Below the pieces are notes generated by a model that did not search any database, was not told where the DNA came from, and saw only the letters and a list, made by a program, of their open reading frames with translations. 54,804 nucleotides of DNA from a virus (lineage: Duplodnaviria; Caudoviricetes): IMG/VR virus record IMGVR_UViG_3300012920_000051, positions 1 through 54,804 of that record; one strand, given 5' to 3'. Shown in pieces: positions 11,382-22,851 of the stretch (position 1 is its first letter; each line of letters starts with the position of its first letter). The position numbers were made by a program, and so were the translations under genes.

Positions 11382-11734
11382 AGTTGTATTTACCCCCTAG
11401 AAAACGGACACCCAACCCTGTAACGCAGGTCATTTGGTGTGTGGCGCAGAGCGGATTCTTCAATGATTATAAGCACTTACGCCACATATTAGACCCAAGC
11501 GAAAGACCCGACCACCCATTGGCTACAGCAAAAGTTTGTATTTCCCCTAGGGGAAAAGCACACCACTGGTATAGATCCTTTATAAGGGTGGACACTACTT
11601 ACAGGCTCTGTGCCTTTTGTGTGGCGCAGAATAAGACCTGCGAACAGTGATCGGCCTGAGCGAAAGTTATTCGGCCACTACCCTAGACAAGAATCGACGA
11701 GGCCAAGATACAGTGACTAAGATAAGAAGCACAG

Positions 11735-11763
11735 AGTTTTAGAAAACTATGGTTGAATCTGTA
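11735..11763 (+). promoter_or_regulatory. Motif B copy (perfect palindromic arms AGTTTT-AG-AAAACT)
   Basis: AGTTTTAGAAAACTATGGTTGAATCTGTA. Confidence 0.8.
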
Positions 11764-11899: not shown

Positions 11900-11938
11900 G
11901 CAAAGAGGTTTGAAAAACGATACGGACTATGCTAATAT
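11900..11938 (+). promoter_or_regulatory. Promoter class C: TTGAAA-N17-(TGn)TAATAT with AACGATAC in the spacer
   Basis: GCAAAGAGGTTTGAAAAACGATACGGACTATGCTAATAT; near-identical copy at 13829. Confidence 0.8.
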
Positions 11939-12002
11939 ACTATTGTGTGCGCCCATGCGCCCACGCCCCGCAACCCCCGAAAACACCAAGAAGGACATGT
12001 TG

Positions 12003-12782
12003 ATGACCTACAGAAGAACCGAACCTGAACATGCCGGGTGCGTCGATAACACGACTCACGGTTATGTTGATCCCGACGTGCTCGGCAAGCGAATGTCTAC
12101 GATCAGACAGCCCGCCGCGACGCTTAGAGCCTCCATCATGGAGATACGCATCGAGAAGCTCAATGAATTGTACGAGGAGTGCATCAAAGAGGGCGACTCC
12201 CCTGCTGAAGCGCATGAATACTGCTCCAAGAAGCTCAAACTGATACCTTCAGTAACGACCTCAATGCCCAACAAGAAGACTCGCGCCCGAAGAGGTATCC
12301 GCGACCCTCAAGAGCTCAACGACATCTTGGATCTACCTGTCCGCTCGATCCAAGTGGATCACCGCCACCATCGTGACGGATTCATCTTCACGGTGCGTTA
12401 TCGCGGTCGTGATCGCCGGTATCATATGACGCACTCGCTCCTAGCGAAACTTAACCACCTCGAAGAACAATTCAACCTCACAGAGATGTCGAACAGAGAG
12501 CTTGATCGTGTGAGATCTACCCCACTCGACCGAAAGTGTCACTACACTGAGGAGAAACGCCGGGTAACATCGAACGACGACGCGCAGAGTCGCATGCGAT
12601 TCAATCGCAGATTGCATACACGGGTCGATCCGAACAGCAATCGACACGCCGTTAATCGTGAGCAGTCATCATATGATGCGCCTAAGAAGCGACGCCCCCT
12701 GACACAAGGCGCGACACCCGCAGACAGCAACTCCCGCGTTCCCGGACCTATCCAACGCAAGAGGCTCCTCAACCGACGTTAA
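12003..12782 (+). CDS. Hypothetical Arg-rich basic protein
   Basis: AAGGA RBS 7 nt before ATG 12003; the upstream extension in the ORF track overlaps the promoter. Confidence 0.75.
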   Translation: MTYRRTEPEHAGCVDNTTHGYVDPDVLGKRMSTIRQPAATLRASIMEIRIEKLNELYEECIKEGDSPAEAHEYCSKKLKLIPSVTTSMPNKKTRARRGIRDPQELNDILDLPVRSIQVDHRHHRDGFIFTVRYRGRDRRYHMTHSLLAKLNHLEEQFNLTEMSNRELDRVRSTPLDRKCHYTEEKRRVTSNDDAQSRMRFNRRLHTRVDPNSNRHAVNREQSSYDAPKKRRPLTQGATPADSNSRVPGPIQRKRLLNRR

Positions 12783-12899
12783 GCGCAACTACCCGCGCCC
12801 TTAGCCACCCACCATTCTCGATCAGCGTCAACCGACGTTGATCAGCAACACGCATGAGCGCTCGTGTTTTAAGCGCTCACCCACAACAAGGAGATTACA

Positions 12900-13664
12900 T
12901 TGGTAATCCTACCCAAGACTTCCGCGCATCAGCGCTTTGTTCACGCTCGGTACCCTGATGCCGAGCAATTCACCTGCCCTCTCGGCAACATCACCACTCA
13001 GGCGATGTACGCAGAGTTCGAACGAGCAGCGCTGATCGCAGACGGATTTGAGAAGACCACCGAAGAGATCGACACCGACCGACCAGGTATTATCGCGGCG
13101 ACATGTACGAACTATTGTGAGGACACTGACATGCAGTTCGTACTTCAATCTAAGGACTTTACAGACTATATTGACATGCTTGAGTACCTTCAGGTGCCTC
13201 CCGCCGACGATGGTGAGCGCGCACGACTCAAGATCTTCTATGATTGGGCTCACGCGCTCCACGACTTCAAGATGAACGTCAAATCATTTCAGTCTCGTCG
13301 TGATGAGCACAACCATTGGCGGTCTGTATACAAGCTTGTCCTCGAGGAGCTTAAACGCGACCAAGACGATTACGAACTGTATCTCAAAGATGCTCGTAAC
13401 ATGGTTGCTGTGTACATGGATGTCGTGAGGCTCATGTCACCGATGAACAAGGATCGCTCATGGACCCCTCTCCTTAAGAACTACCTCGACGATCGTTTAG
13501 AGGCGCAGAGGCGTGGGCTCGATCTTGAGTATCAGTGGGAAATTGAGAGCTTCGCGAACCGCAAGGAGCGTATGGAGCACAATAATCTCGCGACACAGCT
13601 TTATCGACGCATCTTCAGCGACTTGATCAAGACCGACCGCTTCCAGGAGTTACATAATGGGTGA
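12900..13664 (+). CDS. Hypothetical helical protein
   Basis: AAGGAG RBS before TTG; 254 aa. Confidence 0.8.
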   Translation: MVILPKTSAHQRFVHARYPDAEQFTCPLGNITTQAMYAEFERAALIADGFEKTTEEIDTDRPGIIAATCTNYCEDTDMQFVLQSKDFTDYIDMLEYLQVPPADDGERARLKIFYDWAHALHDFKMNVKSFQSRRDEHNHWRSVYKLVLEELKRDQDDYELYLKDARNMVAVYMDVVRLMSPMNKDRSWTPLLKNYLDDRLEAQRRGLDLEYQWEIESFANRKERMEHNNLATQLYRRIFSDLIKTDRFQELHNG

Positions 13665-13794
13665 TCACATCGTAGTCATCTTCAAAGGCTTGCTCGCCGC
13701 AGTGCTCTTTGTTCCTTGCCTGATGGTAACTCTGTTCTTGGAGTTCCCATTGTATTCGAGCATCATCCTGTTCTGCATCTACAGCACTAACTGA
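13657..13794 (+). CDS. Small membrane protein (45 aa)
   Basis: AGGAG RBS; MGDHIVVIFKGLLAAVLFVPCLMVTLFLEFPLYSSIILFCIYSTN; below the ORF-track cutoff. Confidence 0.55.
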   Translation: MGDHIVVIFKGLLAAVLFVPCLMVTLFLEFPLYSSIILFCIYSTN

Positions 13795-13828
13795 TAACCC
13801 TAGACCTTGATATATATCGACAGCGCGC

Positions 13829-13867
13829 GCAAAGAGATTTGAAAAACGATACGGGATATGATACTGT
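13829..13867 (+). promoter_or_regulatory. Promoter class C: TTGAAA-N17-(TGn)TACTGT
   Basis: GCAAAGAGATTTGAAAAACGATACGGGATATGATACTGT. Confidence 0.8.
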
Positions 13868-13939
13868 ATATGTGCGCCCTGCTCGCACCCCGCGCGCACG
13901 TCGCCAACAACCAAGCACATTGACTAAGGAGTCAATCAC

Positions 13940-14776
13940 ATGTCAAACAAGACAACCCCAACCGCTAACGAGACGATCACGCCGTTCAACGTCGAGGATC
14001 TCCAATTCACAGGCACATACGCCACCACCTCTGAGGAGCTCGCGAACGAGAGCTTGTGCATCGACAACGAGCCTGACGCGCCTGCTACTCAGAAGCTCCT
14101 CGCAGTGCTCCCCGATGTTCGTGAGGGCGCTCTCGATGCGCTCAACGGCAACCCGACGTTCAGCAGCCTGAAGAAGCTTTGTGCGTTGGCCACCAACAAG
14201 GAGGCACCCGAGGTCATCGCGACCAACATCGGCAACATCGCTTTCAATCGAGGCACCACTAAAACGCAAGTAAGCTGGAGCCTGACTGACTTCCGCACCA
14301 AGAAGAACCCTTCAGCGACTCGCCTCGAGCAGATCGCAACGCTCAAGCAGATTGCGATTGCAGGTATTGAGAAGGCTTCTCTTCGAGACATGAGCAGTCG
14401 CAACGTCGCCAAGGGTCAAGGCCAATTGATGAGCCACATCACATGTATGGCGATCCTCCGCGCGACCTCGCAGTGGCACAACTTGACGCACGTCGAGCAG
14501 GCTCACTATTCCGCGCGAGCACACCGCCCCGATGCCGACGCAGTGATCGCGTACACCTTCGGTACTTCGCTTGAGGGTGTCGTGCTTGCTACAGCGATCG
14601 CGATCGCAGAGGGTCCCAACTTGTTCGCGGTGGCTATCTACAACGCGGTGGCTACTGCGCTTGATGTCGGACAGATCGCGCTCCCTGAAGGTATGATTGA
14701 CGAGGACGTGACCGCGCCGAACATCAAGGTGACTGTCGTGAAGAACCCAATGTCTCAAATCAACATGGAGTCGTGA
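13940..14776 (+). CDS. Hypothetical protein
   Basis: TAAGGAG RBS; 278 aa; follows promoter C. Confidence 0.85.
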   Translation: MSNKTTPTANETITPFNVEDLQFTGTYATTSEELANESLCIDNEPDAPATQKLLAVLPDVREGALDALNGNPTFSSLKKLCALATNKEAPEVIATNIGNIAFNRGTTKTQVSWSLTDFRTKKNPSATRLEQIATLKQIAIAGIEKASLRDMSSRNVAKGQGQLMSHITCMAILRATSQWHNLTHVEQAHYSARAHRPDADAVIAYTFGTSLEGVVLATAIAIAEGPNLFAVAIYNAVATALDVGQIALPEGMIDEDVTAPNIKVTVVKNPMSQINMES

Positions 14777-14777
14777 C

Positions 14778-15224
14778 ATGGGGCTTAACCTTAAGAGGCT
14801 CAATTCTGATGCACCGGCTGACCCGATCTTGATGTACGGACGCTTCTTGTCGATCCTAGATACGTTGGAGTTGTTCACGTTCGCGTGTAAGAGCTGCCAC
14901 ACCAAGCGGATCAACAACCCGTCCGGCAAGATCTATCCCAACTGCGAGAAGTGTCGAGTGCGTAATCTACGAGAGGGTTTGCCTCCTCTCAAGCACATGT
15001 TCGATCACTTGGGTCGCCCGACTCCTCTACATCAGCAGTTCACGCTTGATAAGGTTCTCCGCATCATCGCGAAGCGGTTCGAGCAGATCTGCGTTACCTA
15101 TCAGGACGATGACATCATGGCCACCACTGCGGACTTGCTCTCCCGCTTCTTGGAGGCCAACGGGCTGTCGATCTGGGATGCTGTTGAAGACACTCCCCCC
15201 GCAGTTGACGCGCCTGTTCTGTAG
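14778..15224 (+). CDS. Hypothetical Zn-ribbon protein
   Basis: CKSC...CEKC; GGAG RBS. Confidence 0.7.
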   Translation: MGLNLKRLNSDAPADPILMYGRFLSILDTLELFTFACKSCHTKRINNPSGKIYPNCEKCRVRNLREGLPPLKHMFDHLGRPTPLHQQFTLDKVLRIIAKRFEQICVTYQDDDIMATTADLLSRFLEANGLSIWDAVEDTPPAVDAPVL

Positions 15225-15597
15225 ATCGCTCCCCCTAGTGATCCTCTCCTGTACCATAGGATGCACTCCCCGCACCGAGATGATTTGTTGCCAACGCCTT
15301 CAGGGGCAAACGCAGTTTATCAAATCTCATGTGATCGGGGGGAACATCAAGCCGAGATTCAACCGAATCACCGACTCGGCGGTACGCGCGTACTGCAGAC
15401 GCACCTCCCCGAAGGCAGTCTGCTACACATTGGAGGTCGCGCTACAGCGCTATCCCGAAGGGCGTCCTCGCGAATACGGAGAGCTCGTATTTGGGATCTA
15501 CACACTGAGAAACTGCCTGTACTGCAAGACAGTCACGCTCTGCGAAGGTGATGTCGAACGCTTAGAGTGTCCACCCACAGACGAAATCGTAGAGTGA
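15205..15597 (+). CDS. Hypothetical Cys-rich protein, possibly exported or a lipoprotein
   Basis: Hydrophobic LPLVILSCTIGC near a TTG start; start uncertain. Confidence 0.45.
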   Translation: MTRLFCRSLPLVILSCTIGCTPRTEMICCQRLQGQTQFIKSHVIGGNIKPRFNRITDSAVRAYCRRTSPKAVCYTLEVALQRYPEGRPREYGELVFGIYTLRNCLYCKTVTLCEGDVERLECPPTDEIVE

Positions 15598-15603
15598 CTT
15601 AAG

Positions 15604-15640
15604 AGCCTGTCGCGAAAGAGCAATCGCGATGGGCTTTTTC
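15604..15640 (+). terminator. Rho-independent terminator
   Basis: AGCCTGTCGCGA-loop-TCGCGATGGGCT followed by TTTT, right after the 15597 stop. Confidence 0.75.
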
Positions 15641-15719
15641 GTAAGCTGCGCGCGCGTGTAAACTCGGGTCGAGATCTCGGGGCGAGCCTGATTCCTGTGG
15701 CTGTAGACAACAACTACGG

Positions 15720-16050
15720 CGAAGTGCTATTAGACGAAGCTAATAAGCAACACACAAAGTGACAAGAAAAGCGCAAAGCGACTTGGCTAAACGGTTATCT
15801 ACAAGCGAAAGATCAAAGCGAAAGATCGAAAGCTACAGGTGGCGGACCCTAGCGAAAGTGCTTGGAACGAGAACGAGCGCAAACCGCCATAAGCGAGGTT
15901 TTCGCAAAGACGAGCTCTACAAGCATTTTGAACAGCATATACAGCGCATCTTACGAGCGACCAAAGCGCTTACTACGAGCGACTTGCTTCTTTAAGGCAA
16001 GCGATCCTGCTTCCCTAGCCAAGCTGTGCTTGTGATGAGCCGAGCGTTGC
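15720..16050 (+). repeat. AGCG(A)-rich non-coding spacer 1
   Basis: About 13 AGCG (8 AGCGA) in about 280 bp on the + strand, counted by eye. Confidence 0.7.
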
Positions 16051-16084
16051 CTGTTATTGGTATCAGCCGGTTCTGTCGTACTGA

Positions 16085-16142
16085 TTCAACGTGACTTTTC
16101 TAAAACTTTTTTATTGCGCTCGTCTTCTGTGTGTAATACTAT
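16085..16142 (+). promoter_or_regulatory. Sigma70-type promoter TTGCGC-N17-TACTAT with upstream motif-B core
   Basis: TTCAACGTGACTTTTCTAAAACTTTT upstream element shared with 18458; -35 at 16114-19, -10 at 16137-42. Confidence 0.7.
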
Positions 16143-16230
16143 TGACACGATGTTGTGATAACATCGCTACACTTGAAACCGTGTCTCTTGTGACACACAT
16201 ACACCGCGCTTATGCGCCCAGGGTAACGCT

Positions 16231-17151
16231 ATGAACGCTTATACTTTCCCTCGTCACTTTGCTGATCCATCACGCGATGAAATCAATGTTCTCTTGACTG
16301 ATGATCATCTACGCGCTGATCTTGATGATAACGCTCGTCTTCGCATGTTGTCTAATGACTTGTCACCGTTCTTTGTTGATAACATCTCTGATCTTTATGA
16401 TGATGTGCCAACCTTTCACACCGGTAACGATACATATACTCCTGATTTCTCTAATCTGCTTAAATATATTGACATGCTTGATGCTGTGATCACTGATTAT
16501 TTCTTTGATGATCCTATGTTGATTGATCTCGCTATTCGTGAATGTAATTACGCATTACCACGACGATCAACAAACTTGATTCATTCTCGCTCTGATCTTT
16601 CGCGCGTCTATGCTCGTCTGTATGCTCACTATGTCACCTTCTCAAATTCAACGATTACTCATGATCGTGTGTTTAAACAAATCAATCACATGATCGAATA
16701 CGCGCGCGACCATATGCCGAACGCTCACTTCATTATCACCGATGATTGCATGCAATCGCTTCAACTTCCATCCTTGATGCATTTGATTAACTATTGCGCT
16801 CTCACACCTTCGCGTATCATCTCGCATCACTTGATCCCGCGATCTGTTAACACTGAATCATTTCTTGATATCGTGCTCTACTGCAACTCACATTTTGATA
16901 TGCCTCGATACCTCTATACACGCTATAATGATCTATATGAACAATCACATCATATTGACTTTGATGATCTCCGCTCAATTAATGTTTATATGACTGCATA
17001 TACTACGCTATCACCGCTTTCTATGCGATACCCTGCCAACAATCATCACGCTCACAATAATGTTGATCTTAACACCGATCATACACACCAATACTACAAC
17101 ACCCTACCTATGCTTGATTCCGCTCCTAATGTCTGTAAATTCACGCGCTGA
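16231..17151 (+). CDS. Hypothetical protein encoded without AG and with one GG (306 aa; 1 Gly, 0 Trp; D/H/N/Y/L-rich)
   Basis: 921-bp ORF with promoter and AGGG RBS-like island at 16220-23. Confidence 0.8.
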   Translation: MNAYTFPRHFADPSRDEINVLLTDDHLRADLDDNARLRMLSNDLSPFFVDNISDLYDDVPTFHTGNDTYTPDFSNLLKYIDMLDAVITDYFFDDPMLIDLAIRECNYALPRRSTNLIHSRSDLSRVYARLYAHYVTFSNSTITHDRVFKQINHMIEYARDHMPNAHFIITDDCMQSLQLPSLMHLINYCALTPSRIISHHLIPRSVNTESFLDIVLYCNSHFDMPRYLYTRYNDLYEQSHHIDFDDLRSINVYMTAYTTLSPLSMRYPANNHHAHNNVDLNTDHTHQYYNTLPMLDSAPNVCKFTR

Positions 17152-17349
17152 TACTCTCCAGCCGGGTAACGATACGCACTAAAACACTCTCTAACCACGT
17201 TTAACACTCTAACCTATGTGTTGATACACGTCGCGACCGAAACGCACTACACGCGCTAATCTCGCGACGATTTGAACACTCCCCATCTGACCACTTGACC
17301 GCGATTGAACCCACCCGACCCCCAACCGCGCTAAAGCACCCTCTCCCCT

Positions 17350-17993
17350 GAGGATTGCAAGCCAAGCCTCTCCTATGAGGGGCTTAAGTCAAGCGACTAA
17401 TTAAAGATATCAAGGTAGTAGAACAAAGAGGAAGGCGATTGATTAGCGAAGCGATTGCTTTGACCGGTGGGCGTGTGCCGTAAGCGAAGAAAAAATTTTT
17501 ACGAGCGTTAGCTGTATCTCGATTTCGACCGAGATAGATCGCGATTCAAATCTGGATGCCTCGATCATGATCGCGAGGTGTGCTCGGAAGAACCACAAGA
17601 GGTACCTTGATGACCGACAAGTGAAACGAGAAAGACGCTACGGTTGCATCCTGATGTTTCCTAGCACTATCGAGCAAGAACCAAAAGCGACGCGCTAAAC
17701 TCGCCAAAGTGACTCGCGAACCCCGAACAAGTGAAGCGCTTTCGCCTCGCGAACAAGAATCGAGAGCGCCTCTATGAGCGCCCTAGCTAAAAAATGTAGC
17801 GACACAAGCCAAGCCAAAACTTTACTACGGCAAGGCCACATAGCGACAAAATAAGTGGCCCGAGGTGATCAGCGACAATAGTACCTGGGTGGTACTCTTT
17901 GTTGACGTTTCCTAGGATAACCTTAGCGAAAGTTGCGCTTAAGGTGAGGTAACATCGGCTAGGCCGAAAGGCGAGACTCGGGACGAGCGAAAG
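17350..17993 (+). repeat. AGCG(A)-rich non-coding spacer 2
   Basis: About 14 AGCG (10 AGCGA) in about 640 bp, counted by eye; no convincing ORF; starts with hairpin AAGCCTCTC-CTAT-GAGGGGCTT at 17364-85. Confidence 0.65.
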
Positions 17994-18042
17994 TTGCGAA
18001 CGCAATCTTTCGTATAAATCGCGATTTTTCGCGATTTTTGCT

Positions 18043-18308
18043 GTTCGCCCTGACCGAACGATCACCCCCTCATCGTTCGATCAAACCGAATTGTCAAATA
18101 ATCGAAATAATGCTTGACATGCGTTCCGGACGTGTAACGCTATGCAACCTTGTACAACCTTCCCCGCCTCTCTAAATATCGTTCTGTTTAACCGAACGAT
18201 TAACCTTGTACAACCTTGTACACCGTTTTGTCCGCCTCGTGAAATTTCGCGTATCGTCTCCATGAAATTTCGTGTGTCGTCTCCATGAAATTTCGTGTGT
18301 CGTCTCCA
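18043..18308. repeat. Left repeat cluster: GTTCG-N7-CGAAC palindromes, AACCTTGTAC repeats and a 3x23-bp tandem repeat
   Basis: Palindromes near 18043, 18074 and 18178; AACCTTGTAC at 18146, 18202 and 18212; TGAAATTTCGTGTGTCGTCTCCA-type unit x3 at 18240-18308. Confidence 0.85.
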
Positions 18309-18457
18309 CTCGATTCCACGCGCGCGACATCATCACGCTCTGATCATTCACGGGCTCGTATCGTTACGCTCTTGTGTCGATTCTACGCGCCACCTGTAAA
18401 TTTTTTTCAAACTGAATTATGTAACGATTACGAACACTTACGCTGCGTCATTACACA

Positions 18458-18512
18458 TTCAACGTCACTTTTCTAAAACTTTTCTTGACCTCCTCGATCA
18501 ATCTGCTATTGT
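18458..18512 (+). promoter_or_regulatory. Sigma70-type promoter TTGACC-N16-(TGn)TATTGT with upstream motif-B core
   Basis: TTCAACGTCACTTTTCTAAAACTTTT element as at 16085; hairpin TGTGATC..GATCACA at the predicted +1. Confidence 0.7.
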
Positions 18513-18573
18513 GCCTCATGTGATCGCTGTTGATCACACACCAAACCATTTGACTCCACAGGGAGACAACGAT

Positions 18574-19275
18574 ATGACATTCACTCTGAATGATCTTACT
18601 ACCCTCGCAACCGCTAAACGCAACCGCGCCACCTCAATCGCTCCTGACGCTCACACCATCGACGTCACCACGCTACGCTCCGATGCTCCTCTGATCACTG
18701 ATCACCCGCTCGCTACGTTCATCAATGACCTGTCAAACGCTCGTACTGTGCTCGCTAACTGCACGTCATACGATGACCGCATGATTGTCTCTGATCACGC
18801 CTCAATGTACCTCGACAACGACCGTAAATGCTTTGTGCTGTGCCTCGATGCTCACGACGCTAAACGCGCTCCTCGTACCTCTGGACATAACGTTGTGACT
18901 CTCACCGCCGACCGCGCTACGCTCAAACGCTCTGACATGCGCCACGCCGTTAACGCCTTCGTTTCGATCGCTCACGTGTCGATCATGCTTGACCGCTTTG
19001 CATCCTACCTCACGCATCCTGTGACTGCTATCGCCTTCACACGTTCACGCGCTCATGATCTCACCTCTAACGTGATCCGATATGATCACACTCACTACTC
19101 ACCTGTAACTCTCGCTCACGCGACCGCTTGCGCTGTCGTGATCCTCTCTGATCACAACCACGACACATACGCGCCCGCCTTCAACGCATGCCTTGATATG
19201 CTGAACGCATCTGATCACGCGCTCACCATCACCTGTGACGCTTACCCTGACTCTGTGCGCGCTCCTCTCGCTTGA
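18574..19275 (+). CDS. Hypothetical protein encoded without AG and with one GG (233 aa; 1 Gly; no Glu, Gln or Trp)
   Basis: AGGGAG RBS at 18560-65 is one of the few RG islands; promoter upstream and terminator downstream. Confidence 0.8.
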   Translation: MTFTLNDLTTLATAKRNRATSIAPDAHTIDVTTLRSDAPLITDHPLATFINDLSNARTVLANCTSYDDRMIVSDHASMYLDNDRKCFVLCLDAHDAKRAPRTSGHNVVTLTADRATLKRSDMRHAVNAFVSIAHVSIMLDRFASYLTHPVTAIAFTRSRAHDLTSNVIRYDHTHYSPVTLAHATACAVVILSDHNHDTYAPAFNACLDMLNASDHALTITCDAYPDSVRAPLA

Positions 19276-19352
19276 CGCGCTGACTTGACCTGACATGTGA
19301 TTGCGTGACTTGACTCCACATCATCGACCGCGATCACCACGCTCTACGCCTT

Positions 19353-19388
19353 GAAACGCGACGCTCAAAACGTCGCGTTTCTTGTTTG
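19353..19388 (+). terminator. Rho-independent terminator
   Basis: Perfect 11-bp stem GAAACGCGACG-CTCAAAA-CGTCGCGTTTC followed by TTGTTTG. Confidence 0.7.
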
Positions 19389-19731
19389 TGTGCTCTCCAG
19401 GAAGACACCGATATGATGCTGTGATCTCTGCGCAGCCGGGTATCGTTACGCGCTTGATCCTTTGTTTTGAATCCTCCCCCTACCTCCTATGCTCTTTGTG
19501 TGTGTCTCACCTCTTCGCCTCGTGTCTTGTGATGATGTGTCGTGTGCCTCACGCGCGCTCTAATGCCTCTCTATGCTCGCTTGCGCTCTCTACCTATACC
19601 TACCCCTATGTTGACTTGCTTACGTTCCTCTGTGTGCAATCTCGCGCGTCTTGTGTTTCCACGTTGCGCGCGTGTGTGCTATCCGCCGTGTCTCGTCTCA
19701 CCTTGCTTGACCTCTCGCGTTGGTATCGTTG

Positions 19732-19895
19732 CGCGTGAAATCTCCACGCGCGACCGCGTGAAATCTCCACGCCTCAACCTTGTACAACCTTGTACACGCG
19801 CGACCGCCCGACCGCGCGACCGTTCGCTCAAACCGAACGATGAAAAAACCGAAAAAAAATCAAAAAAAACCTGTACAACCTTTGTACAACGATAC
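19732..19895. repeat. Right repeat cluster: 23-bp-period repeat, AACCTTGTAC repeats, GTTCG-N7-CGAAC palindrome and A-tracts
   Basis: CGCGTGAAATCTCCACGC at 19732 and 19755; AACCTTGTAC at 19776 and 19786, variants at 19868 and 19877; palindrome near 19821; A-tracts at 19843-69. Confidence 0.85.
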
Positions 19896-20014
19896 TGTGA
19901 ACGCGCGTTCACACTCGCGAATTCCTGAAAATTTCTGAAAAAAACCCGAAATCACGAACCGCGGAGCCCTGACCGCCTTTACGACGGAGTGAATTTCCCT
20001 AGACTCGGACAAAA

Positions 20015-20043
20015 AGTTTCCGAAAACTACCGTTGAATCCGTA
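20015..20043 (+). promoter_or_regulatory. Motif B copy
   Basis: AGTTTCCGAAAACTACCGTTGAATCCGTA. Confidence 0.8.
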
Positions 20044-20125
20044 TAAGAGACAGAAATAACTCTTGATAAATGGCGATTTGTTTGGTATTTTACATATACA
20101 CAAAGATCGCAAATAACTGCAAGAC

Positions 20126-20452
20126 ATGGAGCAATACATGACAAGACTATTCCTGTTAAAAACCAAAGGCAAAGACCACACGGGCAAGCTGTGGGGCCAC
20201 TCTAAGATGCACCTTATTACTTTCGCGACTGATCTTTTACGAGAGGGTCACATATTAGAGGCTACGATCTACGAGGCGATCTTTGAGCATGACTCGTCGT
20301 TGCGTCAACTGTTGGTGTCTGTGTTGAACGGCGAATCAAAACCCACACACAACCAAGTGTGGCGTTCTACGGCCTCTGATCACGAGGCGCAGCTACAAGA
20401 CGTACAAGACATTCAATCCGTACAAGACATTCAATCCGTGGAGCCATCATGA
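20126..20452 (+). CDS. Hypothetical protein with a C-terminal 18-bp tandem duplication (VQDIQS x2)
   Basis: ORF coupled to rusA by ATGA; repeat at 20401-20436. Confidence 0.65.
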   Translation: MEQYMTRLFLLKTKGKDHTGKLWGHSKMHLITFATDLLREGHILEATIYEAIFEHDSSLRQLLVSVLNGESKPTHNQVWRSTASDHEAQLQDVQDIQSVQDIQSVEPS

Positions 20453-20961
20453 GTGACCTTGATCTTCGATTCTTTGCGTTGGGCGCACCGCGAGGCAAAC
20501 AACGCCCTAGAATGGCGCGTCGTGGGCGCAAGACCATCACATATACGCCTCAAGAAACCCTCGAATATGAGCGTAGAATTCGGGAGGCTTTTCTGTTGGC
20601 TTCTTTACACGATCAACTGCCCTTACGGGGGCCACTGTGGGTAGATGTGATCGCGATCTTCCCGCGGACTAAGGCGCTCTCCTTTCGATATAAGAACGGC
20701 ACATACAAGCACAGCACCTCGCGGATATTGCACGCTGTGAAGCCGGACGAAGACAACATACGGAAGTGCGTCCTAGATGGGATTAATGATTACATCGAGG
20801 GTGGTGATTCTCGCGTTGTGGGCGGTACAACCTTGAAGGTGTATGCGTCAATCGACGAGGAGTGTGGCACGCTTGTTAGAGTCCGCAATGCCGAGAGCCT
20901 TGAGGCGCTTGGCGCGCTCTACGATTTCGGCTGGGGTGCGGGCTCCATTGATGCGCCCTAA
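20449..20961 (+). CDS. rusA: RusA-family Holliday junction resolvase
   Basis: P.GKQRPR, YTP.ET..YE, KPDEDNIRKCVLDGI and GDSRVV motifs. Confidence 0.88.
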   Translation: MSDLDLRFFALGAPRGKQRPRMARRGRKTITYTPQETLEYERRIREAFLLASLHDQLPLRGPLWVDVIAIFPRTKALSFRYKNGTYKHSTSRILHAVKPDEDNIRKCVLDGINDYIEGGDSRVVGGTTLKVYASIDEECGTLVRVRNAESLEALGALYDFGWGAGSIDAP

Positions 20962-21261
20962 TTCGCGGGTCATTCTACGCGAGCTATTGTTCATGTGATT
21001 TAGTTGCTTTAAGACCTTCTCTCGTAGAGCCTGTGCCTCGCGTTCACGCTCTAGGACTTCTTGGCGTTCACGATCATTATCTAAAACTAGATGATCACCA
21101 TGATCGTCGGGCATGGACATCATTGGATTATCCATAATAGCCCCATCTTCGCTGTGATGAACCATCCCCTCATTTGTATAAGAGATGGCTTCTGTCTTTG
21201 CGCCCATGAGGGCGAGATATGTGACCGCGCCGAGCGCGATAACCACTAAGAGATATCTCAC
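20848..21261 (-). CDS. Membrane-anchored or secreted coiled-coil protein (possible lysis accessory)
   Basis: N-terminal signal or TM segment MRYLLVVIALGAVTYLALMGA; GGAGG RBS; coupled to the upstream - strand gene; 3' end overlaps rusA. Confidence 0.6.
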   Translation of the reverse strand: MRYLLVVIALGAVTYLALMGAKTEAISYTNEGMVHHSEDGAIMDNPMMSMPDDHGDHLVLDNDRERQEVLEREREAQALREKVLKQLNHMNNSSRRMTRELGRINGARTPAEIVERAKRLKALGIADSNKRATLLVD

Positions 21262-21575
21262 TTTACGCCTCCTGAGAGCAACCGCGTATTAAGGACTCTA
21301 ATATCTGCGCGGGTATCTTCGATACGCTTGTCGATCCGCTCTAGTGTTTTAGAGATGGACGCGAGGGTAGCGGCGTTGGCCGTAGTGGTCTTATTTAGAG
21401 ACTTGATCTCAGCGGCTGCGGAATCGAGGCTGTTTTCTGCGGCCTCTAAGCGTGCCTTAAGTACTGCGAGATCATTACTAAGAGAATTGATCCAAATTAG
21501 GGCTGGGACAAAACATGCGGCGCATGCTTTCCAAATGAGATCAGCCTTTGTACTTGGAGAGAGGGTTGTGGACAT
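21258..21575 (-). CDS. TM plus coiled-coil protein (holin- or spanin-like architecture)
   Basis: One TM segment followed by heptad repeats; GGAGG RBS. Confidence 0.65.
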   Translation of the reverse strand: MSTTLSPSTKADLIWKACAACFVPALIWINSLSNDLAVLKARLEAAENSLDSAAAEIKSLNKTTTANAATLASISKTLERIDKRIEDTRADIRVLNTRLLSGGVK

Positions 21576-21673
21576 ACGAGCCTCCGAAGGCGCATCGGAC
21601 AGATGCAGATATACTTTAGGGATAGATAAAAATTACCATATTGATGTATCTCTTAAAAGCAATCAATAATCAT

Positions 21674-21702
21674 TTGCTAAGCCAATCGGGATCATGTATG
21701 AT
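21674..21702 (+). promoter_or_regulatory. Promoter class A: TTGCTA-N17-TATGAT
   Basis: Consensus match; hairpin GTGATGT..ACATCAC at 21714-36; upstream of the CdbA-like gene. Confidence 0.8.
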
Positions 21703-21769
21703 ATTTACGTCATGTGATGTGTTTATCATACATCACTTCATTCAATCGAAACCAAATCAAGGAGCAACG

Positions 21770-21994
21770 ATGGCTAAAGAAGAGAGTCGCTCTACGTCTT
21801 GTAAGAAGACGATCTACTTCCCGAGCGCGATGCTTGATGAGATCCAACAAGAATGCACGCGCCTTGAGCGCAGCTTCTCTTGGGTCATGCAACGCGCGTG
21901 GCGCATCGCGAGAGAGACTGTACAAGAGATGCCGGGTGTTGAATTAGCAGAGACAACCGACCAACGGGAGGCTGAAGATGCTCACATTGGGTAA
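21770..21994 (+). CDS. cdbA: CdbA/CdbB-like ribbon-helix-helix protein (TIGR04563, MXAN_4361/4362 family; binds c-di-GMP and DNA in Myxococcus)
   Basis: KKTIYFPSAMLDEIQQECTRLERSFSWVMQRAWRIAR aligns without gaps to the recalled M. xanthus CdbA KQSLYFPEEMLKEIQEEATRQDRSLSWVVQQAWKIAR; AAGGAG RBS. Confidence 0.85.
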   Translation: MAKEESRSTSCKKTIYFPSAMLDEIQQECTRLERSFSWVMQRAWRIARETVQEMPGVELAETTDQREAEDAHIG

Positions 21995-22520
21995 ATTATG
22001 CACATTTGTTGCGCTACAGACATTCTCGGCGCACACACCGGACCGAACACCCCTCTCAGAGATGTCACCGTCCTATCAGCGTGTATGGAAGAAGCGCTAT
22101 ATGGACTCACGCATTGAAGAGTGTAAGCGTCTTGTGCGCTTCGCGAAAAATCAACCGGGGTTATCTGATAACAGCAGACTGGATGTAAAGCGCCACGAGA
22201 TTCTATGGATCTTATCAACCGCCGTTGTAGAGAGCGGATTAAATAACAGCGTCGTATCCAAACGAGGCGCTAAGAGTTCTATGCAGACGTACCGGAAATA
22301 CGCGCCGTGTAAGACTTGTGATTTACGGGTCGCGGGGATCTATCACGCGATCACATATCAGAGAAAACACGGATCGTGTAGCGCTGCGGCTAAGTATAAC
22401 GCAGGCCCTAGAGGAACATGTATGGGTCTTGGGCGCGGATACGCCTCACTCGTCCTGAGTGTGTACGAAGATGTATGCGCTGAGGACGGCACTGAATGTC
22501 CTATTGATTGGGGGTGTTGA
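21978..22520 (+). CDS. Secreted lytic transglycosylase-like (SLT) protein
   Basis: Signal-like N-terminus; VVESGL....VSKRGAKSSMQ and AAAKYNAGP motifs. Confidence 0.75.
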   Translation: MLTLGKLCTFVALQTFSAHTPDRTPLSEMSPSYQRVWKKRYMDSRIEECKRLVRFAKNQPGLSDNSRLDVKRHEILWILSTAVVESGLNNSVVSKRGAKSSMQTYRKYAPCKTCDLRVAGIYHAITYQRKHGSCSAAAKYNAGPRGTCMGLGRGYASLVLSVYEDVCAEDGTECPIDWGC

Positions 22521-22521
22521 G

Positions 22522-22851
22522 ATGGACGCAGGCAAATATCAAGAGTTCACTCGCACGACAGCGATCTACCCAAGAGAGACTGCGTTGTCTTATTTATGTC
22601 TTGGCCTCGCGTCTGAAGCGGGAGAGGTCTGTGACAAACTGAAGAAGCACATTCGTGACAGCACACAAGAGGACTTAACACCTGAGCAGATCACCGCGAT
22701 CTCAAAGGAGCTTGGAGACGTTTTGTGGTATGTCGCTCGACTAGCCGATGAATTAGGGCTTACCTTGCCAGAGGTCATCGAAGCCAATCATACAAAGCTA
22801 TTAAAACGTAAGCAAAACCAGACACTTAAAGGCAGTGGAGATGATCGCTGA
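22522..22851 (+). CDS. mazG: MazG-like nucleotide pyrophosphohydrolase
   Basis: LGLASEAGEV..K.KK..RD, KELGDVLWY and C-terminal GSGDDR. Confidence 0.9.
   Translation: MDAGKYQEFTRTTAIYPRETALSYLCLGLASEAGEVCDKLKKHIRDSTQEDLTPEQITAISKELGDVLWYVARLADELGLTLPEVIEANHTKLLKRKQNQTLKGSGDDR

Follow-up and report, generated by a model that had tools for sequence, protein, structure and literature searches.

We report a composite sequence element in a 54,804-base stretch of DNA from a marine phage (Duplodnaviria; Caudoviricetes; IMG/VR record IMGVR_UViG_3300012920_000051, positions 1 to 54,804), hereafter the window, which by a completeness estimate makes up about 56% of the genome. In the early module of this phage, two blocks of the + strand totalling 3,234 nt are purged of the dinucleotides AG and GG (collectively RG), which survive there only as 10 islands, each adjoined on its 3' side by a 10-bp, palindrome-like box. 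This coupling of RG to the 10-mer is not due to chance, and it recurs in an independent relative. We propose that island and box together constitute one oriented composite cis-element of the early module, present in 10 copies in the window and 8 in the relative, which would be the only RG-bearing sequence kept by selection on an otherwise purged sense strand. The reading that we favour, with a probability of roughly 0.35, is that the box is a DNA-level site for a dimer-type protein, belonging to the same family as the iterons of the region, and that the purine-G is a one-sided flank that gives the unit its polarity.

Coupling of the RG islands to a conserved box

The islands begin at 16220, 16423, 17160, 18128, 18352, 18560, 18883, 19399, 19434 and 19722, and these are all the RG occurrences in the two blocks (Table 1). 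An earlier note, made by a model from the letters alone, had placed ten islands at or just upstream of a RYAWCGWTRY-like 10-mer, and all of its coordinates were borne out: the island overlaps the first base of the box in five of the ten cases and otherwise lies 1-5 nt upstream of it. The strict consensus matches seven sites, with those at 16223, 18134 and 19405 having a C at one W position, and the relaxed form RYAHCGHTRY covers all ten. The latter occurs 15 times on the + strand: the blocks, 3,234 nt in all, contain 12 copies, and three fall in the remaining 51,570 nt. Of the 12, ten coincide with islands and two lie at 16161 and 19886. The rule extends, as the note had stated, to the sole Gly codons of the two block-encoded proteins (16423 in ORF1 and 18883 in ORF2) and to both ribosome-binding sites. 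A CRG triplet exactly 7 nt before the box is likewise present at six window sites (17159, 18127, 18351, 18559, 19398 and 19433), but this part of the earlier description does not carry over to the relative, where the spacing is 6 nt or otherwise different.

Searches with the large terminase (TerL) gave 8 loci in viral contigs and 8 loci in metagenome contigs. Only one independent relative with the same architecture emerged, namely G001 (L019), with a terminase 89% identical to that of the window; it was recovered by terminase, promoter-element and downstream-gene searches, and near-identical copies of it exist (L027 and L001 share 99.9% identity). Searching viral contigs with ORF1 and ORF2 recovered no relatives. 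The RG-free blocks of G001 span 12343-13453 and 14125-15816 in its own coordinates, and their DNA cannot be aligned with that of the window blocks except for the promoter element. Its ORF2 shares 37% identity with that of the window over 87 residues (E=2e-10), and the homology of ORF1 is marginal. G001 has nine islands, eight of them boxed, which gives 18 boxed islands out of 19 over both genomes. A matrix built from the ten window sites and run on the G001 blocks placed 7 of its top 10 matches at islands (binomial P=1.4e-8, with 3.9% of block positions counting as island-adjacent), and matched 8 of the 9 islands within its top 16; the 10-mer is thus not so dense that the adjacency would arise by chance. 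The reciprocal matrix, built from the eight G001 sites and run over both strands of the whole window (about 110,000 positions), ranked all ten window sites among its top 12 distinct matches, the other two being 19886 (in block 2, without RG) and 6604; 11 of these 12 matches fall within 3.9 kb. Both the matrix scan proposed in the earlier note and its question about related phages thereby came out in favour of the coupling. Since five to six pairs of sites are homologous by position (those at both translation starts, one upstream of promoter P2, one following ORF2 and the distal one), the matrix tests speak for purifying selection and conservation and not for ten independent origins.

Two further comparisons bear on whether the unit is functional or merely tolerated. 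First, noncoding copies are kept in place: the site at 19434 (unit 19433-19449) corresponds to G001 15363 (GGAGCAACGTTGC), with GCGC(C)TTGATCC next to it in both genomes, and 19722 corresponds to G001 15634. Second, the copies inside ORF2 lie at non-homologous codons, encoding Gly-Asn-Asp twice in G001 and Gly-His-Asn-Val in the window, which implies that they are nucleic-acid signals written into the gene. Together these observations argue that RG plus box is functional. Strict RG-free blocks are absent from the four more distant genomes G002-G005 (TerL 46-65% identical, including a complete genome of 104.6 kb). One of them, G005 (L021 1-400, terminase 46% identical), begins with CGACGACGACGCCACCAA repeats that stay free of RG for 283 nt, together with an ORF that is in part poor in RG; its islands are boxless, and this may represent a weaker form of the same constraint or be merely compositional.

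The AG/GG-free blocks

RG occurs on the + strand of the window at 0.106 per base. Block 1 has 0.6 RG per 100 nt, against 8.6-13.5 in the neighbouring DNA. The RG-free runs of the + strand measure 737, 516, 319, 283, 241, 224, 207, 201, 170, 151 and 136 nt and all lie within 16069-19963; the longest such run outside the blocks is 84 nt, and the maximum on the - strand is 89 nt. The blocks are separated by 658 nt of noncoding, purine-rich sequence in which the RG content is normal. Each block contains a sigma-70-type promoter behind a conserved element, together with one orphan ORF. The purged strand is the sense strand for all genes of the region, and the purge reaches beyond the transcription units, extending about 70 nt upstream of the start of the ORF1 promoter, 330-460 nt upstream of P2 and 580 nt past the terminator. 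No trinucleotides are otherwise excluded from the blocks.

In both genomes the block-encoded proteins lack Trp, contain 1-2 Gly and are very poor in Lys, Glu and Gln. As ORF1 and ORF2 of the window do not form AG or GG even at codon boundaries, the constraint acts on the nucleic acid and reshapes the proteins. The purged G has been exchanged for T and C rather than A, which speaks against G-to-A hypermutation, and the confinement of the purge to one strand led us to reject, by argument, a generic avoidance of restriction sites or protospacer-adjacent motifs. We also considered guanine ADP-ribosylation by DarT1, for which the excerpts of the report used here (PMC11543638) give no consensus motif, and did not retain it.

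Neither ORF1 nor ORF2 belongs to a family in PHROGs or Pfam. A homologue search with ORF2 returned only itself, a representative search with ORF1 returned itself and three giant multi-stretch proteins that we took as compositional matches, and tblastn with ORF1 gave no match; the AlphaFold model of ORF2 is poor (mean predicted local distance difference test score 36.5). Assembled contigs of sequencing run X1 differ from the window by four substitutions and one insertion within 16148-16293, none of which creates an RG, and a 198-nt contig from run X2 spans the 18883 site with no difference listed there.

The edges of the RG-free blocks coincide with RNA-structure signals, for block 1 ends at a 9-bp hairpin (AAGCCTCTC-CTAT-GAGGGGCTT, 17367-17388, without a T tail) and block 2 starts at a terminator-like hairpin (AAATCGCGATTTTTCGCGATTT, with a T-rich tail, 18016-18045). 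In both genomes each block is preceded by a noncoding, purine-rich spacer whose RG content is normal (window 15600-16070 and 17335-17992; G001 about 12000-12342 and 13454-14124). The word AGCGAAAG has eight copies in the window, all on the + strand, at 11498, 11659, 15804, 15817, 15851, 17925, 17986 and 31622; in G001 different words recur at the corresponding places (GCAAGTGATGCAAGACGTTGAC, AAAGAGCT). The spacers may represent noncoding RNAs or protein-binding arrays.

Table 1. Features of the purged region and its surroundings (window coordinates)
Feature	Position	Strand	Remarks
RG-free block 1	16071-17334	+	1,264 nt; promoter element, 5' leader, ORF1, C-rich 3' region; three islands
RG-free block 2	17993-19962	+	1,970 nt; iteron arrays, promoter P2, ORF2, terminator, pyrimidine-rich tail; seven islands
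ORF1	16231-17151	+	306 aa; 1 Gly, 0 Trp; orphan; stop codon 17149-17151
ORF2	18574-19275	+	233 aa; 1 Gly, 0 Trp, 0 Glu, 0 Gln; homologous to G001 ORF2
CAGGGTAACGCTAT	16219-16232	+	Island 16220-16223 and box 16223-16232; ORF1 Shine-Dalgarno and spacer, ATG at 16231
CGGTAACGATAC	16422-16433	+	Island and box in ORF1; GGT is the sole Gly codon, residue 65
CAGCCGGGTAACGATAC	17159-17175	+	Noncoding copy; island begins 8 nt past ORF1 stop; repeat D16
CGGACGTGTAACGCTAT	18127-18143	+	Island and box; ATG at 18142
CGGGCTCGTATCGTTAC	18351-18367	+	Noncoding, between 23-nt repeats and promoter P2; box in opposite orientation
CAGGGAGACAACGATAT	18559-18575	+	ORF2 Shine-Dalgarno and spacer; ATG at 18574
TGGACATAACGTTGT	18882-18896	+	In ORF2, sole Gly codon (residue 104); only AACGTT of the window
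CAGGAAGACACCGATAT then ATG ATG CTG TGA	19398-19424	+	Serves 3-codon mini-ORF 19413-19424, right after terminator
CAGCCGGGTATCGTTAC	19433-19449	+	Noncoding; island begins 9 nt past mini-ORF stop
TGGTATCGTTGC	19721-19732	+	Noncoding, before CGCGTGAAATCTCCACGC repeats; positional homologue of G001 15634
ACAACGATAC	19886-19895	+	High-scoring box without RG, fused to TGTACAAC iteron
AAAACGATAC	11914-11923	+	Box in spacer of TTGAAA-17-TAATAT promoter, outside blocks
AACCTTGTAC iterons	18146-18233	+	10-bp period; more copies at 19776-19797 and 19867-19890
Promoter P2	18485-18512	+	TTGACC-16-TATTGT; conserved element 18452-18483 in front (repeat D10)
Intrinsic-terminator-like hairpin and T tail	19353-19381	+	After ORF2; both arms without RG and CY
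Conserved element ATTCAACGTSACTTTTCTAAAACTTTT	16079-16110, 18452-18483	+	
Conserved element ATTCAACGTSACTTTTCTAAAACTTTT, inverted	11735-11763, 20011-20050		

Polarity and anatomy of the box

The unit has a consistent polarity. When RG is counted on the + strand alone, all 18 boxes have it within the 9 nt on their 5' side and none has it on the 3' side. The asymmetric form GTAACGATAC (16424 and 17166) and its reverse complement GTATCGTTAC (18358 and 19440) both occur on the + strand, always with RG on the 5' side. The composite signal that the earlier note had offered as one of two possibilities is in this sense supported, since RG and 10-mer behave as one oriented unit and its noncoding copies are conserved in G001. 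The ideal box is the palindrome RYAACGTTRY, and G001 has it in perfect form as ATAACGTTAT, GCAACGTTGC and ACAACGTTGT. At the homologous noncoding site after ORF2 the window has GTATCGTTAC and G001 has GCAACGTTGC, so that positions 2 and 9 change together. The window has the imperfect AACGAT/ATCGTT boxes because AACGTT and ATCGAT are counter-selected genome-wide: each has one copy, against 13.2 expected for AACGTT (whose sole copy belongs to the 18887 box) and 19.6 expected for ATCGAT, whereas G001, with 16 copies of AACGTT against 14.1 expected, shows no such avoidance.

Boxes also occur without RG. Besides those listed in Table 1, weaker copies are found at 16161-16170 and 18421-18430, and in G001 one covers the -10 region of the ORF1 promoter (12407) while two lie within iterons (14268 and 15761). 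The word AACGATAC is present in 9 copies over both strands against 1.86 expected, a count that none of 100 shuffles reached, and eight of the nine lie between 11.9 and 19.9 kb. A second copy of the AACGATAC/AAAACGATAC box in a promoter spacer is at 13843-13852. In all, four copies lie in or at promoters (11914, 13843, 18134 and G001 12407), and most copies lie within transcribed DNA. The box shares an ACAAC(G) half-site with the TGTACAAC(G) iterons, which recur every 10 bp on either side of ORF2. Two iterons of G001 join as the 18-bp palindrome TTGTACAACGTTGTACAA, and in both genomes A/T tracts adjoin the iterons around ORF2.

The two flanks of ORF2, 18043-18310 and 19732-19895, carry the same set of motifs in mirrored order and the same orientation, namely GTTCG..ACCGAACGAT hairpin words, AACCTTGTAC iterons and 23-nt GAAAT(T)TC..TCTCCA repeats, with A/T tracts beside them; the arrangement is reminiscent of a replication origin or of a region recognized during packaging. 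A perfect 18-bp palindrome (TGTGAACGCGCGTTCACA, within 19886-19913), operator-like in appearance, immediately follows the RG-less ACAACGATAC towards the right end of block 2.

The polarity bears directly on another suggestion of the earlier note, that a bound protein masks or licenses the neighbouring RG. On this view RG would be intrinsically harmful, and a protein on the box would shield those RGs that the phage cannot spare. This would fit the observation that the indispensable RGs, in ribosome-binding sites and Gly codons, all obey the rule. Likewise, 18 of the 19 islands are boxed while RG-less boxes exist, from which it follows that RG depends on the box and not the reverse. Nevertheless, the footprint of a bound protein would cover both sides of the box and RG is found only 5' of it, which makes pure masking unlikely. 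Moreover, four noncoding copies in the window and two in G001 have an RG that could have been removed, yet two of them are kept in place between the genomes, and the GG at 13164 in ORF1 of G001 spans the codon boundary GTG|GAT, where a synonymous Val codon would avoid it. We therefore consider masking on its own to be very improbable.

The unit also invites comparison with signals read by RNA polymerase on the non-template strand. Elements resembling the -10 hexamer are known to cause sigma-70-dependent pausing, as at lambda PR', and the elemental pause is enriched at start codons. The unit could accordingly be a -10-like element (an extended -10 G followed by AACGAT or TATCGT) or an elemental pause of the form G(-10)...Y(-1)G(+1). 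AACGAT and TATCGT retain A2 and T6 of TATAAT, GGTAACGATACG matches GG-N8-YG exactly, and a G follows the RG guanine by 10 nt in 13 of the 19 islands. At 18114-18141, TTGACA (18114-18119), a 16-nt spacer and TGtAACGCT can be read manually as a promoter of the extended -10 type; this possible promoter was not listed by the promoter scan. However, G is found about as often at +5 and +15 (12 islands each) as at +10, so the spacing is not specific to an elemental pause. The other sites have no -35 element by manual reading, the ACACCGAT forms are without A2, and the removal of AG would be left unexplained. We regard a polymerase signal as the least probable of the explanations considered here.

Overlap with translation starts

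About half of the islands may double as translation starts. An ATG follows 8 of the 19 islands at a spacer of 5-10 nt (background 11.7%, P=8e-4), and ATG, GTG or TTG follows 11 (background 30%, P=0.011); the other eight have none of the three in this range. Four start-serving islands belong to long ORFs, these being ORF1 and ORF2 of both genomes, and the remaining ones open frames of 3-55 codons whose lengths differ between the genomes. GG is present in all 19 islands, seven of which are a bare GG doublet and hence a weak Shine-Dalgarno sequence; GGT occurs in nine and GGAG in four. The box core lies upstream of only 3 of the 55 ORF starts of the window, two of which are those of ORF1 and ORF2, and thus the box is not a general feature of ribosome-binding sites in this phage.

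The overlap raises the possibility that the constraint operates on RNA, such that the purge would keep ribosomes from binding at stray places on the early transcripts, or would put these out of reach of a ribonuclease that cuts at RG. On such a scheme the islands would be true or decoy initiation regions, consisting of a Shine-Dalgarno sequence, a fixed spacer and NUG or ACG, and the spacer would be a translational operator or processing site comparable to those of RegA and RegB in phage T4. Several features are compatible with it: 1) the purge falls on the sense strand of every gene of the region, and the start-codon counts given above point the same way. 2) Boxes of class B mimic the start of ORF1 with ACG replacing ATG (GGGTAACGATACG versus GGGTAACGCTATG). 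3) Two noncoding copies begin 8-9 nt past a stop codon. 4) All four early leaders have small hairpins, albeit of non-conserved sequence. Yet the asymmetric box occurs in both orientations, which are different sequences as RNA, and the perfect DNA palindromes and the RG-less copies in promoters are not what a transcript-level signal would call for. The purge, further, spans flanks beyond the promoters and the terminator. RNA folding around the islands yielded no common structure or masking hairpin, 8 of 19 islands have no start codon in range, and we know of no RG-specific ribonuclease. On balance an RNA-level explanation appears doubtful.

A strand-specific enzyme as a possible alternative

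The polarity and the apparent confinement to one strand are also what one might expect of an enzyme that, directed by the box, nicks the + strand at purine-G or starts a pppRG primer on the - strand template. Stray RG would then be purged so as to confine the enzyme to its licensed sites, in an origin-like region upstream of the packaging genes. The sites are spaced about 200-740 nt apart, and iterons and A/T tracts flank ORF2 in both genomes. As precedents there are the one-strand nicks of certain phages and the HNH nickases with short sites, in the excerpts of PMC3517423 and PMC3592412 used here, and GGT in 9 of the 19 islands recalls the latter. It is, besides, alone among the rivals in tying the purge to the box. 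Against this, 10 islands are without GGT, and no HNH or other nuclease and no primase turned up when ten ORFs lying around the region or downstream of it, those directly preceding the terminase gene among them, were scanned against Pfam, in a record that covers about 56% of the genome. The sites are clustered within 3.9 kb, whereas known nick sites are genome-wide, and four of them are ribosome-binding sites of long ORFs. CAG, which is CTG on the - strand, precedes 5 of the 10 window islands and only 1 of the 9 in G001, where TGG and CGG dominate; the link to the DnaG recognition triplet drawn in the earlier note is accordingly not supported. There is also a logical difficulty, for if RG alone suffices the box is superfluous, and if the box is needed the purge is superfluous. 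Hence, while this is the alternative to which we would turn first, we judge it unlikely.

A bolder possibility is that the early module is free of RG because a strand-reading enzyme requires purine-G alone: on DNA this could be a nickase or a primase, on the transcript a ribonuclease. Its specificity would come from the purged substrate, and the box would license the few remaining RGs as the only legitimate or regulated sites. We consider this idea, too, to be unlikely. If true, it would imply a nucleic-acid enzyme with two-letter specificity and, opposite it, a kilobase-scale recoded immune gene cassette whose proteins have given up glycine and tryptophan.

The favoured explanation

The purge, the coupling with its polarity and its conservation, the dyad symmetry and the overlap with translation starts are observations; that a protein reads the box as DNA, and what this protein does, is our low-confidence inference. 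In our favoured DNA-level explanation it would be a double-stranded site for a dimeric protein whose binding repertoire also takes in the TGTACAAC(G) iterons, and this would account for the dyad, the occurrence in both orientations, the copies in promoters and the kinship with the iterons. RG would be an obligatory 5' flank, which in about half of the copies could also act as the Shine-Dalgarno sequence for a start codon within or just after the box. The protein would sit at the starts and ends of the early cistrons and in the iteron-flanked region. From there it might control early expression, as an operator or roadblock beside translation starts, and/or mark strand-specific initiation points in an origin-like region.

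Several points weigh against this explanation: 1) A symmetric dimer site offers no reason for a one-sided RG, and an operator model leaves the RG purge unexplained. 2) A manual tabulation over all sites showed no covariation of box positions 2 and 9, and an alternative reading of the box is a pair of direct pentamers, with a G every 5 nt. 3) The G001 island at 12685 (GGTACCTCATAC), the single Gly codon of its ORF1, has no box. 4) The feature is found in only two independent genomes, and several of the sites are homologous by descent. 5) No helix-turn-helix or ribbon-helix-helix family scored above threshold among about 45 ORFs scanned, the sole hint of a DNA-binding protein being a sub-threshold ribbon-helix-helix match at 21641-21994.

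Genomic setting

The window encodes PhoH, thymidylate synthase, ribonucleotide reductase, a sliding-clamp-like protein, RusA and MazG, as well as a large terminase, portal, major head protein and baseplate, with nearly all genes on the + strand. The large terminase gene lies about 3 kb downstream of the RG-free region. The above-mentioned Pfam scan of ten ORFs, including those of the stretch 20126-22851 beside it, gave RusA, MazG and the weak ribbon-helix-helix match. A search for tRNA genes in the window gave none, and an Rfam search produced a single hit below threshold. No cultured phage matches the window at the DNA level; the closest by large terminase is Bacillus phage BCD7, at 41% identity. 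The annotation of BCD7 includes genes for 7-deazaguanine (TGT-like, GTP cyclohydrolase (FolE), QueC, QueD and QueE; L036 10327-15799). This lead was dropped, as BCD7 has no dinucleotide-free block, no TGT match was found in G000-G005 and none of these genes turned up in the available sequence of the present lineage.

Upstream of the blocks, the 148-aa ORF 14778-15224, conserved in G001, has a zinc-ribbon-like CxxC pair (CKSCH...CEKC). It has no Pfam or PHROG family, and its protein-atlas lead, to RNHCP, scored 0.87; atlas matches for two neighbouring ORFs had scores below 0.9 and were not used. The conserved element ATTCAACGTSACTTTTCTAAAACTTTT has a palindromic core (AGTTTTCTAAAACT), adjoins the -35 of both early promoters and is also present in G001, and its inverted copies lie about 40 nt upstream of other promoters. 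The 40-nt inverted repeats 16072-16111 and 20011-20050, 78% complementary, bracket the whole RG-free module.

Many palindromes of 6 bp are strongly avoided across the window. CCATGG, CCCGGG, GCCGGC, GGATCC and GTCGAC have no copies at all, and, in addition to ATCGAT and AACGTT above, ACGCGT (1 against 15.6 expected) and TGCGCA (1 against 14.1) are depleted. This suggests a host with many restriction systems.

Significance and comparison with known systems

When two dinucleotides are strictly lost from one strand over kilobases, the agent responsible must be very strong and must read that strand alone. The purge persists through heavy divergence and costs the proteins nearly all of their Gly, Trp, Glu and Gln. 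Its exceptions, which come down to one conserved oriented motif of 12-17 nt, are the best handle on that agent. Should the motif be the licensed site of an enzyme, phages would have a novel means of shielding or addressing the genes that they express first; should it be an operator or translation-start element, it would still amount to a compact regulatory code for an orphan early module. In a lineage without a cultured close relative it provides a defined probe. We found nothing comparable in the open-access literature on dinucleotide avoidance in phage early genes and on nick sites.

Four kinds of known system resemble the unit in part. The first comprises phages with interrupted genomes. 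According to the excerpts of PMC3517423, localized nicks confined to one strand occur in T5, tf and phiKMV-like phages, with the T5 consensus R/GCGCRGG cut between R and G. Like RG plus box, the interruption sites of T5-, phiKMV-, tf- and LUZ24-like phages are sequence-defined and recur several times per genome. They lie on one strand only, as RG plus box may do as well, its box being dyad-symmetric and its RG having been scored on the + strand alone. They differ in being genome-wide, non-palindromic and set in normal sequence, with no dinucleotide purge mentioned in those excerpts, and our side of this comparison consists of sequence only. The second kind comprises nickases with very short sites. 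The excerpts of PMC3592412 describe phage HNH nickases that cut SG|GT, CG|GT or YG|GTY with a specificity of 3-7 bp, and the frequent nickase Nt.CviPII (/CCD). The terminase-linked HNH nickases are strand-specific with short, GG-centred sites, to be compared with GGT in nine islands and a terminase gene about 3 kb away. In the same excerpts a neighbouring palindrome does not figure as a requirement for them, and here 10 islands are without GGT and no HNH protein was found beside the terminase.

The third kind consists of operators and processing sites that several phage early messages have in common. In T4, RegA recognizes translational operators and RegB cleaves GGAG in early Shine-Dalgarno sequences. 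The present unit is similar in being one short motif at several early gene starts, with GGAG in four of the 19 islands. It is dissimilar in that about 40% of its copies have no start codon, that it is a DNA palindrome used in both orientations, and that a gene for a corresponding nuclease or repressor was not identified.

The fourth kind comprises palindromic operators and iterons bound by dimeric proteins, such as lambda-type operators, the heptads of omega and other ribbon-helix-helix proteins, and the IncQ oriV with its ssi sites. Operators are not known to require a one-sided purine-G and are not normally placed between a Shine-Dalgarno sequence and its start codon or within ORFs. In its other properties the box resembles them: it is a 10-bp dyad with a central CG, has a few copies in promoters (most being within transcribed DNA) and imperfect variants in either orientation, shares a half-site with iterons phased at 10 bp, and has A/T tracts nearby.

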